Below are positions 22,929 to 27,103 of a DNA stretch of 64,000 nucleotides, piece by piece. Within the stretch, counting starts at the first letter, position 1. Every line of letters starts with the position of its first letter. The DNA comes from a virus, in the IMG/VR virus record IMGVR_UViG_3300033429_000001, positions 1 through 64,000 of that record; one strand, written 5' to 3'. The translations under genes were made by a program, and so were the position numbers. Below the pieces are notes generated by a model, which saw nothing but the letters and a program-made list of their open reading frames with translations, did no database searches and was not told the origin of the DNA.

Positions 22929-23438
22929 ATGGCCAGTAAAGAGGCTCTAATGGAACTGAGGCGGTCTCTGATCGCTGCCCTTCTATCTGCTGACCCGAGA
23001 ATTACGCAACGGCAGATATTGACCGCATTGGAGAGAAAGGGACTATTTAACCCAGATTCGGGGAATCCCTATTCTGTGGGCACCATCAACACGGACATCA
23101 AGGTCATAAAAGTGCAATGGCGCGAGCGGGCAGGGATAGATGCAGAGGGCTGGTTGAGCGAGGTTTTGGCCAAACTTGACGAATTGGAAAAAAAGGGCTG
23201 GACTACGGGAAAGCCTGATTTGGTACTGAAGTGTATTCAGGAGCGCAATAAATTACTGGGATTGTACTCCCCCTCCAGGCAAGAAATCACCGGTGCCGGT
23301 GGCGGCCCGATAAAGACAGAGGATGCAACCCTTACCGACGAAGAGCGAATTAATAGAATTGCAGCCATATTTGACCGGGCAAGAGCTAAACGAGACAGGC
23401 AAGCTGACACACAACAAGAAAAGTTGCCAGGCGAATAA
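22929..23438 (+). CDS. terS: Putative terminase small subunit
   Basis: N-terminal HTH, R.KLLGL..P...EITGAGGGPI tail; upstream of terL. Confidence 0.7.
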   Translation: MASKEALMELRRSLIAALLSADPRITQRQILTALERKGLFNPDSGNPYSVGTINTDIKVIKVQWRERAGIDAEGWLSEVLAKLDELEKKGWTTGKPDLVLKCIQERNKLLGLYSPSRQEITGAGGGPIKTEDATLTDEERINRIAAIFDRARAKRDRQADTQQEKLPGE

Positions 23439-23452
23439 TTGCATGGTATACT
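23424..23452 (+). promoter_or_regulatory. Promoter of the TIGR-Tas cassette, TTGCCA-17-TATACT (extended -10)
   Basis: Near consensus, overlapping the terS stop. Confidence 0.7.
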
Positions 23453-23457
23453 CTCAA

Positions 23458-23538
23458 TGTTCGTGAGTGGTATCAAAATTGTAAAAAACCGTTTTGGGGA
23501 GTGCAGGCCACTCGCGAACACCCAAGGCGGTTTTTTTT
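23458..23538 (+). promoter_or_regulatory. Leader attenuator: terminator hairpin whose loop is complementary to the transcript 5' end
   Basis: AAAAAACCGTTTTGGG/CCCAAGGCGGTTTTTT stem; TGTTCGTGAGTGGT pairs with GCCACTCGCGAACA. Confidence 0.7.
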
Positions 23539-23567
23539 ATTGCGTTGTAGGCGAGGCAGGCGAAGAT

Positions 23568-24191
23568 ATGGAAACAAAAGAAGATATGGCAAAGCAGAGC
23601 AAAATGACGAAGGGAAAAATTACCATTGACGTGCGTGACTGGCAAAAAGAATTTGCCGAGATAGAGCCGGATTTAACCGGCGATGACCCGATAATTGACC
23701 TTGCCCTGACAGGATTAAAACCACAGCAAGCGGGCAGGATGATAACCATCGCCGGAGAGCGTGGTGATTTAAAAGACTTTCCGGGTTCAAAGCTTTTGCT
23801 GATGGTCGGGGGAGCTAATTTCTTTAGTAGTCACGTGGCGCGGGCCAAGCGAGAAATTACGCTGAAGAACGGCAAGACCTTTAGCGGTCGGGCCTACATC
23901 GCCCCGGCTCGTGAGGTGGCGGGAGAGGATGAGGAGGATCAGTCTGATAATGATACCCATCTACAACATGCTGCCTCATCCCTTCCTGCCTCAAATTGGC
24001 TTGATGAGAAAGTAGTCAGCACAATCGACCCGGCTACTTTTGACCGGGCCGTCAGGTATCTTTTCAACCAAGTGACGGGTAATATCTGGAAGCGTTTTTT
24101 ACACATTGCCGAACACAAGCCGGGTGAAGTGGAACGGATAGCCGGCGAGTTGAAAGATAGGATAGATGAGATGGTAGAGCGGTTGAGTTAG
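23568..24191 (+). CDS. Hypothetical protein in the TIGR-Tas cassette; contains one array unit
   Basis: ORF between leader and array; the ORF-track start 23439 falls in the promoter. Confidence 0.75.
   Translation: METKEDMAKQSKMTKGKITIDVRDWQKEFAEIEPDLTGDDPIIDLALTGLKPQQAGRMITIAGERGDLKDFPGSKLLLMVGGANFFSSHVARAKREITLKNGKTFSGRAYIAPAREVAGEDEEDQSDNDTHLQHAASSLPASNWLDEKVVSTIDPATFDRAVRYLFNQVTGNIWKRFLHIAEHKPGEVERIAGELKDRIDEMVERLS
23918..23990 (+). ncRNA. Orphan TIGR-type unit inside a CDS
   Basis: stem-TCA-gtctgataa-TGATACCCA-tctacaaca-TG-stem. Confidence 0.75.
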
Positions 24192-24700
24192 CCAGCCGGC
24201 GCGTAATACCCAAGCATCTTGTGCTACCAATCGCAACCGGTGGGGCGGCCACATGCCGCGTGATACCCAAACTTCATGTGCCGCCCCACCTTAAAAGCTT
24301 ACTGAGGGCCAAATCCTAAGTGATGCCCAGTCCAACGGTGCCCTTGACAAAATCCGAGGTTGAGCCAGGTTGAACGTGATACCCACGATAATTGTGTTCA
24401 ACCCCGGCTTTTGGAGAGAAGCCAGTAGCATAGTGATACCCATGAAACGTGTGCTTCTCTCCCAAATCAAGGCAATTGGTCTTGACCAGATTAGCGGTGA
24501 TACCCACCTAGACAGTGAAAGGACAAAAATAATGAACCAAAGTGAATGTGATACCCAGAATCAATGTGTTCAAATTGAAGGCAACAACGGAGAGGGCCAG
24601 GAATCCTGTGATACCCAGTTAATGGACGTCCCCTCCGACGATAACGGGACGGGCGTCCATAAAAGTCATGATACCCACTCCCCATGTGACACCCGTCCCG
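24180..24700 (+). repeat. TIGR-type stem-loop guide RNA array, 9 tandem units (stem-CCA-N9-TGATACCCA-N9-TG-stem)
   Basis: CCA at 24192, 24249, 24309, 24365, 24422, 24486, 24537, 24597, 24657; both spacers always 9 nt; each unit has its own inverted repeat. Confidence 0.9.
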
Positions 24701-25461
24701 ACCCAAAGCCCCGCAAGCATCCCCACCTATGGCAAGCCTATCTATGGTGGTACGAGTTGATGGAAATGCGCAAGCGTCACAACTCGCGTATTTCCTCAAT
24801 CGAAAATGGCAAGAGCAATCTTGACGCGGGATTTGAACGGGAAATGATAGCGATGCTTCAGCTTGACATCCTGGTTGACCCGAAGAATAAGACCCAGCGA
24901 GCTATGTCTGCCAAGCAGATAATGGTGAATTATGGCGAGGCTGTTGGGCCAATATGGGACTGGTGTTTGGCCCATAAGGGAATGGGGGAAAGCCTGACTG
25001 CCCAACTATTGGCCCAGATAGACGACATCAACAATTCCCCATCGGTGTCCAGTCTGTGGAGGTTTGCCGGGTTCAGTATTGACGGGGGGAAGGCAGAGAA
25101 AAATCATAAAGGGGTCAAGTCGCCCTTTAACCACAAACTCAAGGGTATCTGTTTCAATATTGCCGATCAATTCATCCGGCAGCAAACGCCGTACTATGTC
25201 GATATTTATTATGCCGAGAAACAACGCCAGCGAGAATTATATCCCGAACCAGTTTGTCGGGGCTGTGGAGAGTTGGCAGTACAGAAACGGAAAAAGGTTA
25301 GAGGCAAAATGGTGATGACCTGGGGCTGTCCCGAGAATGGCAAGCACGTTGTAAATTATACCGATGCCCACCTGCATATTAGAGGGTGGCGTAAGATGAT
25401 AAAGGAATTTCTTAAGGACTTGTGGGTAGCGTGGCGCAGGATTGAGGGTCAGATAGAATGA
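24532..25461 (+). CDS. tasA: TasA-like protein: coiled coil plus IS110 C-terminal/Nop RNA-binding domain, no nuclease domain, zinc-ribbon insertion
   Basis: PIWDW...KGMG..L.AQLLA.I.DI.....SSLWRFAG...N..LK...H.H.R..RKMIK.FL.DLW..WR; no DEDD RuvC or HNH; GAAAGGA RBS; adjacent array. Confidence 0.82.
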   Translation: MNQSECDTQNQCVQIEGNNGEGQESCDTQLMDVPSDDNGTGVHKSHDTHSPCDTRPDPKPRKHPHLWQAYLWWYELMEMRKRHNSRISSIENGKSNLDAGFEREMIAMLQLDILVDPKNKTQRAMSAKQIMVNYGEAVGPIWDWCLAHKGMGESLTAQLLAQIDDINNSPSVSSLWRFAGFSIDGGKAEKNHKGVKSPFNHKLKGICFNIADQFIRQQTPYYVDIYYAEKQRQRELYPEPVCRGCGELAVQKRKKVRGKMVMTWGCPENGKHVVNYTDAHLHIRGWRKMIKEFLKDLWVAWRRIEGQIE

Positions 25462-25485
25462 GATAAACACAGCAACGCAAACCCA

Positions 25486-25514
25486 AGAGGGCCAGAGTTA
25501 TCTGACCCTCTTTT
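25486..25514 (+). terminator. Intrinsic terminator closing the TIGR-Tas cassette
   Basis: AAGAGGGCCAGA/TCTGACCCTCTT plus T tract. Confidence 0.7.
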
Positions 25515-25517
25515 ATT

Positions 25518-25546
25518 TTGACGCCAGCCAATCAATATGATAAAGT
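25518..25546 (+). promoter_or_regulatory. Promoter for terL, TTGACG-17-TAAAGT, near-leaderless
   Basis: ATG 9 nt after -10; no SD. Confidence 0.55.
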
Positions 25547-25555
25547 ATCATTAGC

Positions 25556-27103
25556 ATGCAAATACCGACGAAGAGCGAATTGATAGAGTTGCAGCCGTAT
25601 CTGACGAAATCGCAACTGGAAGAAATAGACAAACTGGCGAATGAGATCGAGATACCGCTTTGGTATCCCAATCCTGACCACGAAGACGGCTCCCCGAATC
25701 CTCAGCGATTGGCCTATGAGAGCGAGGCTGACATCTTGGGGTATGGCGGTTCGGCGGGATCGGGCAAAACGGACCTACTCCTCGGCGTCGCTGCCACCCA
25801 GCAAACCAACTCCGTAATCTTCCGCCGCGTCTTTCCCAATCATCGAGGAAACATTGAGCGCAGCCGAGAGATATTTAACCCCACCGGTGTCCCTCATGGC
25901 AAAAACAGCTTCAATGAACAGTTTCACCGTTGGAAATTAGCAAGCGGTAAACAAGTAGAATTCGAAGCCTGCCAACACGAAAAGGACAAAAACAACCAAC
26001 GCGGACGCCCCCGAGATTTCTATGGCTTTGATGAGGCCACCGAATTCACCCGCTCTCAATTTGATTTTATCATCGGCTGGAATCGCTCGACAGACCCCAA
26101 CCAACGATGTCGAATCATTCTTACTTTTAATCCCCCCACCGACGAGGTCGGCTCCTGGGTGGTGGATTTCTTTTTACCCTGGATTTCCTACCTTTTCCCC
26201 AAAGACTTTGAGCATCCCCGCCCGGCCAGGCCGGGGGAGTTGCGATGGTATGCCACCGTCGAGGGACAAGAGACCGAATGCACAGACGGAACCCCATTTG
26301 AGCGTGATGGGCTTCTCGTCAAGCCCCTTAGCCGGACTTTCATCCCAGGCAAACTCAAAGACAATCCACATTTGATAAATACCAATTATGAGGCTATCCT
26401 TCAGTCACTGCCCGAGCCGCTACGTAGCCAGGTGCTACACGGCGATTTTGCGGCAGCCAAAGAGCGCGACCCCTGGCAGGTGATTCCCGTCGAATGGGTC
26501 AAGCTGGCTCAAAAGCGGTGGCTGGAAATGGAGAGGCCGGCGGTGCCTATTTCCGGTACGGGGGTTGATGTGGCCCGAGGAGGCCAGGACAAGACAACAA
26601 AATGCGATAGGTACGACAATTATTTTGATGAGGTCAAGGTATGGCCTGGGGTGGCCACCCCAGACGGTCCGACGGTGGCCGCGTTGGTCGAGGGCGAATT
26701 GGAGGGCGAACCTGCCTACATCAACATTGATGTAATCGGCGTTGGGTCGTCTGCCTATGACAGCTTGAAGCCAATGTATAAGCGGGTCAACCCGATCAAT
26801 GCCGGGGAGAGGTCAGACTACCGGGACCGCTCTGGCAAATACAAAATGAGGAATGTTCGGGCGGAATATTACTGGCGGATGCGGGAGGCGTTGGACCCGG
26901 ATCACGGGGAAGACCCGGCGCTGCCACCGGGTAACGAGGTGGTAGCAGATTTGTGTTCGGCTCGGTATAAGGTGACGACAGCGGGGATACAGATTGAGAG
27001 CAAGGAGGAGATTAAGGAGCGGATAGGCCGGAGTCCTGATGTTGGGGAGGCTATTTTGCTGGCGAATTATCCGGGGGAGCCGCAGGGGATATTCTTTGGA
27101 TAA
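25556..27103 (+). CDS. terL: Terminase large subunit
   Basis: YGGSAGSGKT Walker A, FDEATEF Walker B, TFNPP, GVDVARGGQD nuclease motif, RSPD.G.A. Confidence 0.95.
   Translation: MQIPTKSELIELQPYLTKSQLEEIDKLANEIEIPLWYPNPDHEDGSPNPQRLAYESEADILGYGGSAGSGKTDLLLGVAATQQTNSVIFRRVFPNHRGNIERSREIFNPTGVPHGKNSFNEQFHRWKLASGKQVEFEACQHEKDKNNQRGRPRDFYGFDEATEFTRSQFDFIIGWNRSTDPNQRCRIILTFNPPTDEVGSWVVDFFLPWISYLFPKDFEHPRPARPGELRWYATVEGQETECTDGTPFERDGLLVKPLSRTFIPGKLKDNPHLINTNYEAILQSLPEPLRSQVLHGDFAAAKERDPWQVIPVEWVKLAQKRWLEMERPAVPISGTGVDVARGGQDKTTKCDRYDNYFDEVKVWPGVATPDGPTVAALVEGELEGEPAYINIDVIGVGSSAYDSLKPMYKRVNPINAGERSDYRDRSGKYKMRNVRAEYYWRMREALDPDHGEDPALPPGNEVVADLCSARYKVTTAGIQIESKEEIKERIGRSPDVGEAILLANYPGEPQGIFFG

Follow-up and report, generated by a model that had tools for sequence, protein, structure and literature searches.

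Three guide units of a viral stem-loop TIGR array probably lie within the tas reading frame and encode its N-terminal tail

The window (the whole 64-kb stretch of viral DNA that was analysed) carries a 207-aa ORF (ORF207), a tandem array of TIGR guide units and a tas gene. The features of the locus are as follows.

23424..23452, + strand: promoter-like site, TTGCCA, 17 nt, TG-TATACT (10/12 matches, extended -10 TG; consensus match only)
23568..24191, + strand: ORF207, function unassigned, conserved directly upstream of array and tas in relatives
23918..23990, + strand: orphan unit-like hairpin inside ORF207, loop repeat ATGATACCCA at 23950 (exact pattern match), read as ..DNDTH..
24179..24530, + strand: units 1-6, the untranslated part of the array (pattern matches, shared geometry, alignment)
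24518..24523, + strand: Shine-Dalgarno (SD) sequence AAAGGA, inside the unit 6 3' arm (GAAAGGAC, 24517-24524)
24532..24534, + strand: ATG, most likely tas start codon (SD 8 nt upstream; accessibility; MN start in homologues)
24532..25461, + strand: tas coding sequence, 309 aa, TasA-like
24533..24572, + strand: unit 7, the first intragenic unit, stem TGAAC/GTTCA, encoding NQSECDTQNQCVQ
24584..24641, + strand: unit 8, stem GGAGAGGGC/GTCCCCTCC with 1 mismatch, -18.3 kcal/mol, encoding ..GEGQESCDTQLMDVPS
24644..24701, + strand: unit 9, 13-position stem CGGGACGGGCGTC/GACACCCGTCCCG with 1 mismatch, -25.2 kcal/mol
25444..25510, + strand: 12-bp perfect inverted repeat with a T-rich run, overlapping the tas stop codon

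The site at 23424..23452 is the sole good promoter candidate upstream of the ORF207-array-tas unit, and a scan of the + strand found no promoter-like site between 23452 and 24821. TTGACC at 24481 and TTGACA at 24345 were considered by eye for an internal tas promoter in the array and rejected for lack of a usable -10. The inverted repeat at 25444..25510 is the likely end of the transcription unit; the terminator scan made no call there, the loop being 43 nt. ORF207 had no Pfam or PHROG family above threshold. Its tblastn matches (E 4e-25 to 6e-5) occurred in 30 locus rows, some of them duplicate contigs, and each lay upstream of a tas match. The ORF207 stop codon sits in the 5' arm of unit 1. 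The orphan hairpin within ORF207 has a long stem (RNAfold -32.7 kcal/mol for 23915-24000). Among the 15 loci listed, a long flanking direct repeat was seen only in the window.

Nine tandem stem-loop TIGR units with the loop repeat GTGATACCCA were identified at 24179-24700. Allowing at most one mismatch to RTGATRCCCA, the loop repeats start at 24203, 24260, 24320, 24376, 24433, 24497, 24548, 24608, and 24668, with start-to-start spacings of 57, 60, 56, 57, 64, 51, 60, and 60 nt in that order. The same pattern has 26 matches in the whole 64-kb window against 15.9 expected, and none of 100 shuffles reached 26. The nine units have a common layout, in which a variable 5' arm with a final C is followed by spacer A (10 nt, beginning with CA), the loop repeat (10 nt), spacer B (10 nt, ending with GT in eight units and with AC in unit 8) and a 3' arm beginning with G. 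A gapless 58-column alignment of units 1-6 showed invariant positions C14, C15, A16, G25, T26, A28, T29, C31-A34, G43, T44, and G45, with variable stems. The stems are 5-14 bp long and differ from unit to unit. That of unit 6 is imperfect and is missing from the MFE fold, and that of unit 7 is the weakest of the array (5 bp, -7.0 kcal/mol); given these weak stems, units 6 and 7 may be poor guides.

Two short variable stretches thus flank a conserved loop repeat, in tandem and next to tas, as in TIGR arrays, and each unit is closed by its own variable stem in place of an edge repeat, as in the stem-loop architecture. The edge-repeat motif, which is GTGCGAGCCA in dual-repeat relatives, was absent from the window. 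A search of Rfam gave no match at E up to 1 across 23300-25700. For the CUU processing motif described in the preprint by Xu et al., inspection by eye found CTT close to several stems among units 2-6 and none following units 7-9.

A covariance model was trained on units 1-6 alone and run over the 64-kb window at E up to 10. It recovered unit 9 (28.7 bits, E 1e-5), unit 7 (25.8 bits, E 7e-5) and unit 8 (21.2 bits, E 1.5e-3), and no other non-training site in the window; with default filters the orphan hairpin in ORF207 was also missed at E up to 10. In units 7, 8, and 9 the loop repeats match at 10/10, 10/10, and 9/10 positions and the junction bases are kept. Since one geometry holds for all nine units, and since a model built from units 1-6 matches units 7-9 and nothing else in the window, it is strongly supported that the last three are genuine array members.

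The best fold matches of the protein encoded downstream were TasR (9mty) and TasH. A phmmer search against PDB sequences gave 9mty_A at E 1.9e-23 and TasH (21kl) at E 1e-4. The AF2 model of Tas has a mean pLDDT of 86.6, and Foldseek with this model ranked TasR/TasH chains 1-10 (probability 1.00, E 3.6e-11 to 8e-7), followed by IS621 and ISCro4. In Pfam, a weak Transposase_20 match was the only one. The protein consists of a coiled coil, a Nop domain, the two being related in fold to TasR/TasH and IS110, and a Zn-ribbon-like insert. It has no nuclease domain. As in TasA proteins, no HNH or RuvC precedes the coiled coil; residues 1-50 are modelled with low confidence and show no fold, and the core begins at residue 53. 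The core motif is D-x-RPDPKPRK-x3-LWQ, in which R61, L66, W67, Y70, and W73 are invariant among 42 sequences. Model confidence is low over residues 1-41 (pLDDT below 50) and becomes high at about residue 51, so that the 52-residue N-terminal tail is predicted to be disordered. The tail is acidic, with a pI of 4.06 and ten D+E against one K+R.

The C-terminus, WRRIEGQIE, ends nine residues past the last conserved helix motif and lacks the Y-x6-H loop that dual-repeat relatives of the family have. Among loci with a readable C-terminus, Y-x6-H was found in none of 10 stem-loop loci and in 10 of 13 dual-repeat loci. Absence of this Y/H processing loop agrees with stem-loop systems as described in the accessible part of the Xu et al. 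preprint. In SpTasH the self-processing site is Y289/H296 in the C-terminal loop, according to the accessible part of its description (PMC13421893).

The tas frame is open from 24364. In-frame starts upstream of ATG 24532 are TTG 24370, GTG 24376, 24394, 24433, and 24451, and ATG 24442. An earlier sequence-only reading of this DNA had named ATG 24622 as the only other upstream ATG; this holds between 24532 and the core but not further upstream, where ATG 24442 and the TTG and GTG codons are in frame. The conserved Tas core begins at 24688, within the 3' arm of unit 9, and the next starts beyond its beginning are TTG 24757 and ATG 24760 and 24766. Since no in-frame ATG, GTG or TTG occurs between 24623 and 24756, at least unit 9 must be translated. 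As that reading had stated, a start at ATG 24622 would still leave one unit within the coding sequence. Initiation downstream of 24700 is very unlikely on the same grounds.

ATG 24532 is the best supported tas start. It is preceded by the AAAGGA SD; its initiation region (-20..+13) has a mean unpaired probability of 0.62, the highest of six candidate starts, the zone around the SD and ATG being the most open RNA of the array in a naked-RNA prediction; and an MN-x4-D[TA][QH] N-terminus with two to three units downstream is present in 8 of the 11 closest homologues (protein sequences only). Translation from this codon reads MNQSECDTQ..CDTQ..HDTH.. with units 7-9 in frame, and the first 52 codons of tas are these three units. 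The 5' arm of unit 7 is made of the TG of ATG 24532 and the next codon, AAC, and the 3' arm of unit 9 (24688-24700) of the conserved codons D-T-R-P-D. The array, the retained frame and the CDTQ/CDTQ/HDTH residues were all present as originally described, with the last two spacings at 60 nt and spacings of 56 and 64 nt upstream. The arrangement is that of intragenic tigRNAs, with units inside a coding sequence, the frame kept and the encoded residues predicted to be disordered, a placement that hangs on the inferred start codon. Translated units cannot carry stop codons in their spacers, as had been pointed out. This constraint is mild; with about six spacer codons per unit, we estimate that it would rule out about one in four random spacer pairs.

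If translation instead began at ATG 24622, unit 9 alone would be translated into a 22-residue tail, and units 7 and 8 would lie in the 5' UTR with their frame a coincidence. This codon is in frame and nearest to the core, its initiation region is moderately unpaired (0.51 for -20..+13), and two 60-nt spacings are not improbable when four of the six upstream spacings are also multiples of three. We consider such a start unlikely, since ATG 24622 has no purine-rich SD (the preceding bases are cctgtgatacccagtta), its methionine (M31) is not conserved, being Tyr at that place in the closest homologue, P0003, and the homologues with an MN N-terminus start two to three units further upstream. It is very improbable that an error of assembly or a frameshift created the long N-terminal ORF and hides a canonical start beside the core. 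Most relatives do have such a start, at most 27 nt from the anchor in 36 of 44 loci, while the nearest in-frame start in the window, 66 nt upstream of the core, is the farthest among 43 loci, the remaining locus having no such start. An out-of-frame ATG is also found at 24684, four nt before the anchor; it is, however, part of a CATGT/G junction common to units 2, 7, and 9, and the same three-unit tail of 49-54 residues is present in P0003, P0025, P0040, P0042, and P0064, which come from independent contigs.

Position 3 of the conserved Arg codon (+8 from the anchor) forms a base pair with position 1 of a codon in the tail. This pair is A-T in the window, G-C in L001, L057, and L059, and C-G in L058; across it, the Arg change is synonymous and the tail residue switches between Thr, Ala, and Pro. 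Stem pairs were counted by script, as the MAFFT alignment of the last units had misaligned 5' arms. At the corresponding G-x-G site, the 28 homologous proteins that combine a long tail with a D[AT]RP anchor carry Ala in 12 cases, Pro in 8, Thr in 2, Ser in 1, and Gln in 1, and 3 lack the motif, a comparison of protein sequences only. P0043 has GAG just before the GKG picked by the script, which if read by eye raises Ala to 13. Thr, Ala, Pro, and Ser are the four amino acids encoded by NCG. Compared with P0003 (68% identity over the whole protein), residues encoded by loop and stem are kept and those encoded by spacers differ. The compensatory Arg-wobble/tail pair, the G-x-G residues and the loop and stem residues kept relative to P0003 strongly support, at the level of sequence comparison, that units 7-9 are maintained by selection on the RNA. 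The sequence of the tail is by the same token largely dictated by RNA, and it offers a clean example of a protein segment set by RNA pairing and not by protein function.

A different view of the overlap is that units 7-9 are fossils captured by an upstream shift of the start codon, translated with neither a guide nor a regulatory role. The 5-bp stem of unit 7 and the predicted disorder of the tail fit this view. So does L059, where tas is intact even though the last loop repeat has decayed and the ORF upstream, which is not in the tas frame, ends 42 nt short of the anchor; in at least this relative the tail appears to be dispensable. Moreover, a search of the 72,741-base contig with four 8+8-nt layouts, allowing at most 2 mismatches in 16 nt, found no target of the spacer pairs, a result that does not bear on targets in a host. 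Fossil units would nevertheless hardly retain their loop repeats and junctions so well that a model of units 1-6 detects all three, nor would the stem of the last unit be compensated at the cost of a tail amino acid. Without selection on the RNA a disordered tail should decay, and D[TA][QH] motifs persist, 29 in all, in 11 proteins that are just 50-68% identical overall; the sequence-only reading had proposed to check homologues for variable N-terminal repeats of this kind, and the outcome is positive. A functionless overlap is accordingly improbable in our view. We favour, with a probability of roughly 0.6, the reading that array units 7-9 sit between the tas start codon and the TasA core, are under RNA-level selection and would be translated as a 52-residue acidic tail.

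Related arrangements were found in other loci. An SD at the place of a unit's 3' arm followed by an ATG was seen in L001, L057, L058, L059, L056, L085, and L066. In L001, L057, and L058, AGGAG or AAAGGA with an ATG lies inside the array 168-225 nt upstream of the anchor. These three also have an in-frame GTG at -6 that could be the real start, yet it coincides with the TGT/G junction consensus of the units. An open frame is weak evidence by itself, since that of L085 is open 171 nt upstream with -6 as its sole start codon. Of 80 homologues that lack a C-terminal Y-x6-7-H, 31 have a called N-terminal extension of at least 40 aa, against 0 of the 22 that carry the motif, a contrast that is descriptive, as it depends on gene callers' starts and mutually related sequences. 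The count leaves out 17 of the 119 homologues listed, 2 without the anchor motif and 15 without a recognisable C-terminal motif.

The relatives have the order SD-ATG-(M-T-D-x-R-P-D) and the clade of the window SD-ATG-units-D-x-R-P-D, and the array units were probably inserted just behind an ancestral start codon. The 3' arm of unit 6 contains the SD and the 5' arm of unit 7 the AUG, so that guide formation and translation would compete for the same RNA. Because these elements are in the stems, a maturation step that frees units 6-9, or a Tas dimer on units 6 and 7, would be incompatible with initiation on the same transcript, so that any one transcript could serve either as mRNA or as a source of unit 6-9 guides. 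Negative autoregulation would result if Tas binding promotes processing or occludes the ribosome binding site (RBS). Of the original interpretation, the position of the units in the tas coding sequence and the choice of ATG 24532 are supported, the underlying observation being confirmed. Negative feedback by excision of the guides, which would cut the tas mRNA, is hypothetical; both the existence and the direction of such feedback are inferred from sequence. The sequencing runs listed for this DNA comprised a single DNA run of a sediment metagenome, possibly the source, and no RNA run. The cutting enzyme would probably not be Tas itself, given that the Y/H loop is absent; any cutting would then need a host RNase or some other activity.

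Feedback might also act on translation and without a cut, with a Tas dimer on units 6 and 7 of the intact mRNA hiding SD and AUG in the way of K-turn binding proteins. We regard this as possible though doubtful. The core of the SD is paired in the unit 6 stem and the AUG in that of unit 7, the naked RNA is most open here, so that a protein stabilising two weak stems would have its largest effect, and Tas has no Y/H processing loop. The weak stems may on the other hand equally mean poor binding of Tas, and occlusion would in any case be a variant of the main explanation and not an exclusive rival to it. In its widest form the favoured explanation is tentative: the tas RBS would be built of guide units, and assembly of Tas on its own transcript would choose, molecule by molecule, between making Tas and making guides. 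Such a system would be a self-titrating RNP, its tail a by-product of RNA constraints, with an Arg wobble base fixing Thr, Ala or Pro 15 codons upstream, and arrays would grow by unit insertion across the start codon.

Autoregulation of comparable form is known elsewhere. The mRNAs of L7Ae and L30e carry in the UTR a single regulatory mimic, a K-turn to which the encoded protein binds. The window resembles these cases in having a box C/D-world RNA-binding protein with its cognate motif at the 5' end of its own mRNA, but its motifs are complete guide units with a second role as coding sequence, and Tas binding is putative. In the eukaryotic Microprocessor, Drosha cleaves hairpins in the DGCR8 mRNA, the enzyme being the complex itself. 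In both cases hairpins resembling the substrate lie in the mRNA of a subunit of the complex, at its 5' end or where the coding sequence begins, and processing would destroy that mRNA; Tas in contrast lacks the known processing dyad.

Stem-loop TIGR-Tas systems with tigRNAs encoded in frame within the 5' end of tas, small-RNA reads from intragenic BlTasA units and a hypothesis of coupled maturation and translation are all contained in the accessible part of Xu et al. (bioRxiv 10.64898/2026.09.09.750476). Intragenic overlap of guide units is as a class already known from that source, and the clade of the window may already be within its data set; intragenic units were absent from the accessible parts of PMC12045711 and 10.64898/2026.08.11.744272. 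As far as those systems, BlTasA among them, are described there, the window agrees with them in its nuclease-less TasA without a Y/H loop, its variable stems and a conserved loop of roughly 9-10 nt, and in having units in frame inside the tas coding sequence that encode a disordered region. The accessible description places the tested intragenic unit of BlTasA at an internal wedge loop, whereas the three units of the window form the extreme N-terminus. Relative to BlTasA as described there, the window further differs in that SD and AUG lie within unit stems and the 3' arm of the last unit consists of conserved core codons.

The dual-repeat TIGR-Tas loci (for example L009, L061, and L067) share with the window a core that is 40-55% identical, an array immediately upstream of tas and the same 207-aa ORF upstream. 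They differ in having a period of 36 nt, the edge repeat GTGCGAGCCA and the loop GTGAAACCCA, and in a tas start 6-27 nt before the core with a frame that in many cases closes about 54 nt upstream.

Research on TIGR-Tas is young, and the maturation of stem-loop guides and the control of Tas levels are open questions. At about 2.1 kb (23424-25520) the locus is compact and can be cloned, and its RBS and start codon, together with codons 1-52 of tas, are built from guide units. It is relevant to the annotation of Tas N-termini and to the recoding of tas for expression, as codon optimisation would destroy three guides and any feedback.

Further relatives were sought in several collections. A pattern scan of viral contigs for the loop repeat gave 18 loci, none of them with the Tas anchor motif, and a protein search with residues 1-75 gave 14 matches and no new close relative. 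By tblastn, cultured phages held relatives at only about 25-34% identity, mostly in mycobacteriophages. The scan of a genome collection found one relative, a Nitrospirales MAG.

The array and the tas gene were found to overlap as follows:

24179-24700: nine tandem stem-loop guide units (units 1-9), units 7-9 lying inside the tas coding sequence when this is read from ATG 24532
24364 to 25459-25461: open frame reading units 6-9 as xDT[QH], closed by the stop codon at 25459-25461
24532: ATG with AAAGGA 8 nt upstream, giving a 309-residue protein that begins MNQSECDTQ...CDTQ...HDTH
24688: first conserved core motif of Tas, D-x-R-P-D (the anchor; the residues before it are termed the tail)

The loop repeat of the units is 10 nt, GTGATACCCA, with two variants, and starts at 24203, 24260, 24320, 24376, 24433, 24497, 24548, 24608 and 24668 (start-to-start distances 57, 60, 56, 57, 64, 51, 60 and 60 nt). 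Set in register, all nine units share one plan: 5' arm (ending in C), variable 10 nt (starting with CA), loop repeat, variable 10 nt and 3' arm (starting with G). Each 3' arm pairs with its own 5' arm, and the stem sequence varies between units. Variable stems and a missing edge repeat place the array in the stem-loop type (the terms TasA and stem-loop array follow PMC12045711 and 10.64898/2026.09.09.750476).

A PDB sequence search with the Tas protein returned 9mty_A (E 1.9e-23) and TasH chains (E 1e-4). The ten best Foldseek matches of an AlphaFold2 model built from 42 homologues (mean pLDDT 86.6) were TasR and TasH chains (probability 1.00), followed by the IS621 and ISCro4 recombinases. 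No nuclease domain is present, and the protein is therefore a nuclease-less, TasA-like Tas. The first protein search gave 320 homologues, of which the best 120 were considered and 42 of these aligned. In the 42 the conserved core begins D-x-R-P-D-P-K-P-R-K-x3-L-W-Q; R61, L66, W67, Y70 and W73 do not vary, and P56, K59 and K62 hardly do. The first core codons of the window, GAC ACC CGT CCC G, constitute the 3' arm of unit 9. With a pI of 4.06 the translated tail is acidic, and disorder is predicted for it: pLDDT is below 50 for residues 1-41, and the confident fold begins at about residue 51. Within the Nop domain, a Zn-ribbon-like insert (CxxC ... C ... H; 25255-25350, Tas residues about 242-273) varies across the family: it is long in the clade of the window, shorter in some relatives and missing from others, which show gaps in the protein alignment.

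The sequence-only reading had proposed that the N-terminus of Tas is translated from the last guide units, starting at ATG 24532. Its description of these units was accurate with respect to the 60-nt spacing, the kept frame, the CDTQ/CDTQ/HDTH residues and the Shine-Dalgarno (SD) sequence. The two starts it named, 24532 and 24622, are present, but further in-frame starts upstream of 24532 went unmentioned (TTG 24370; GTG 24376, 24394, 24433 and 24451; ATG 24442). No in-frame ATG, GTG or TTG was found between 24623 and 24756, and the next starts (24757, 24760 and 24766) lie inside the first long helix of the model (H64-91) and would remove invariant residues. Since the core begins at 24688, the sequence implies that at least unit 9 is translated. 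A start downstream of 24700, which would have placed the units outside the coding sequence, is very unlikely. The comparison covered 113 loci from viral, genome and metagenome contigs; with the window, 51 have the anchor motif, and 44 were left after removal of duplicates. An in-frame start is located at most 27 nt from the anchor in 36 of the 44, typically as M at -6 nt in M-T-D-x-R-P-D. The nearest one in the window is 66 nt away, the farthest among the 43 loci having one; a single locus has none.

An SD is present before ATG 24532 and absent before ATG 24622. In a partition-function fold of 24192-24800, the mean unpaired probability of the initiation region was 0.62 at 24532, 0.51 at 24622 and 0.21-0.43 at the other candidates (six in all); the most open 34-nt windows begin at 24499-24509 and 24700-24703. 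The nearest relatives with DNA compared, loci L001, L057 and L058 (loop repeat GTGTTACCCA), carry AGGAG or AAAGGA and then an ATG; this ATG is located within the array, 168-225 nt ahead of the anchor and 15 nt before a loop repeat. The variable N-terminal repeats that had been suggested as a check are present in homologues: among the matches listed, eight of 11 proteins with the D-T-type loop repeat of the window start MN-x4-D[TA][QH], and six of the 11 have three-unit tails of 49-54 residues. M31, encoded by ATG 24622, is Tyr in P0003, the closest homologue among the matches listed. Together, SD, RNA accessibility, the relatives and the homologue N-termini favor ATG 24532 over ATG 24622, and translation of the intragenic units as the Tas N-terminus is well supported at the sequence level.

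P0003 ends ...EGQITNDTQLARA, and a unit may overlap the 3' end of its tas gene. The homologous Tas protein P0004 has a second D-A-R-P-D segment, with about 50 extra residues between the array units and the M-T-D-A-R-P-D core start, which suggests a duplicated tas 5' end.

A covariance model built from units 1-6 only (58 positions, 8 pairs) matched four training units, unit 9 (28.7 bits, 1e-5), unit 7 (25.8 bits, 7e-5) and unit 8 (21.2 bits, 0.0015) in the 64-kb window, and nothing else at E up to 10. Relatives retain the stem of the last unit, with one compensatory site that pairs the wobble base of a conserved Arg codon (T/C/G) with the first base of a tail codon (A/G/C): A-T in the window, G-C in L001, L057 and L059, and C-G in L058. 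Arg thereby stays Arg, while the tail residue becomes Thr, Ala or Pro. Among the matches listed, 28 homologues have a tail of at least 25 residues and a D[AT]RP anchor; their G-x-G residue is Ala in 12 (13 if the GAG of P0043, just before the script-picked GKG, is taken by eye), Pro in eight, Thr in two, and Ser and Gln in one each, the motif being absent in three. NCG codons specify precisely Thr, Ala, Pro and Ser; the comparison of these homologues was made at the protein level. Between the window and P0003 the loop- and stem-encoded residues are the same, while the spacer-encoded ones differ. Altogether, these observations indicate that selection acts on the RNA of units 7-9, with the peptide as a probable passenger.

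All loci inspected (the window, L001, L057, L058, L059, L056, L085 and L066) have the SD exactly at the place that the 3' arm of a unit would take. In clades without embedded units the core directly follows the ATG, and in the clade of the window units lie between M-T/M-N and D-x-R-P-D; it looks as if units were inserted just behind an ancestral start codon. The SD-ATG-MTNKQVLP ORF is also found in L059, but there it runs in a different frame from tas and ends before it, and the last loop repeat of this locus has decayed; the array-tas fusion is thus dispensable. In L085, 171 nt are open upstream and the sole start is at -6, so open frames in arrays are no proof of translation. L001, L057 and L058 also have an in-frame GTG at -6, coinciding with the TGT|G junction consensus of the units, which may be their start.

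The sequence-only reading had further suggested that guide excision could autoregulate tas. The SD falls within unit 6 and the AUG within unit 7, the units with the weakest stems of the array (-9.4 and -7.0 kcal/mol, 66-nt contexts). If either unit were released, or if a Tas dimer clamped them, initiation on the same molecule would be prevented, and feedback would depend on whether Tas promotes processing or binding there. The known self-processing loop of Tas, C-terminal Y-x6-H, follows the array type within the family. Among dual-repeat loci whose C-terminus is readable, 10 of 13 have it, the remaining three keeping the loop with a different aromatic residue; none of 10 stem-loop loci does. 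The catalytic residues of SpTasH are Y289 and H296 (PMC13421893). As the Tas of the window, ending WRRIEGQIE, has no such loop, cleavage by this protein itself is not expected. A host RNase is proposed for stem-loop systems in the discussion of a preprint (10.64898/2026.09.09.750476), and a host RNase cut or simple occlusion appears more likely than Tas-catalysed cleavage. Feedback on tas is plausible, with Tas-catalysed excision probably not the route. A search of sequencing runs found no RNA run that contains this DNA, and no targets of the spacer pairs were found in the contig.

Xu et al. (10.64898/2026.09.09.750476) describe tigRNAs that lie in frame within tas, at its 5' end, in stem-loop systems, raise a possible coupling of their maturation to translation, and show small-RNA reads from an internal unit of BlTasA. 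The window locus is a new, clear example of an overlap already described there in general. The ribosome binding site built from unit arms, the core codons as stem arm and the wobble-to-tail covariation are added details, not found in the preprint sections consulted.

Both array architectures occur within a single Tas family whose members share 40-55% identity (L003, L007, L009, L061, L064, L067, L069, L071, L060 and others). Traced back from the core, the tas frame of many dual-repeat loci meets a stop after about 54 nt; by arithmetic on the positions, this is an in-frame TGA belonging to the last loop repeat.

ORF207 (23568-24191, 207 aa) immediately precedes array and tas and is conserved in that position: 30 locus rows were matched by tblastn (E 4e-25 to 6e-5), dual-repeat and stem-loop types alike. 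No Pfam or PHROG family was found for it, and its product is a possible partner of the Tas proteins of this family. An orphan tenth unit lies inside ORF207 at 23918-23990, with an exact loop repeat ATGATACCCA at 23950 and a long stem (-32.7 kcal/mol for 23915-24000). It encodes ..SDNDTHL.., part of an acidic linker, and gave no hit with the unit covariance model at E values up to 10.

Two copies of a 43-nt direct repeat, 91% identical (23333-23375 and 25563-25605), flank the promoter-ORF207-array-tas-terminator cassette. One falls in the 169-aa ORF that comes before the cassette, towards its 3' end, and the other at the start of the large terminase gene; they are read in different frames, and only the window has such a repeat among the 15 loci printed. 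An inverted repeat of 12 perfect base pairs around a 43-nt loop (25444-25510) overlaps the tas stop, is followed by TTTTATTTT and is probably a terminator; its loop contains GCAAACCCAA, loosely resembling the loop repeat of dual-repeat relatives. Between a promoter-like site (23424-23452) and ORF207, a 16-nt inverted repeat followed by a T8 run (23483-23536) might act on the whole unit as a leader terminator or attenuator.
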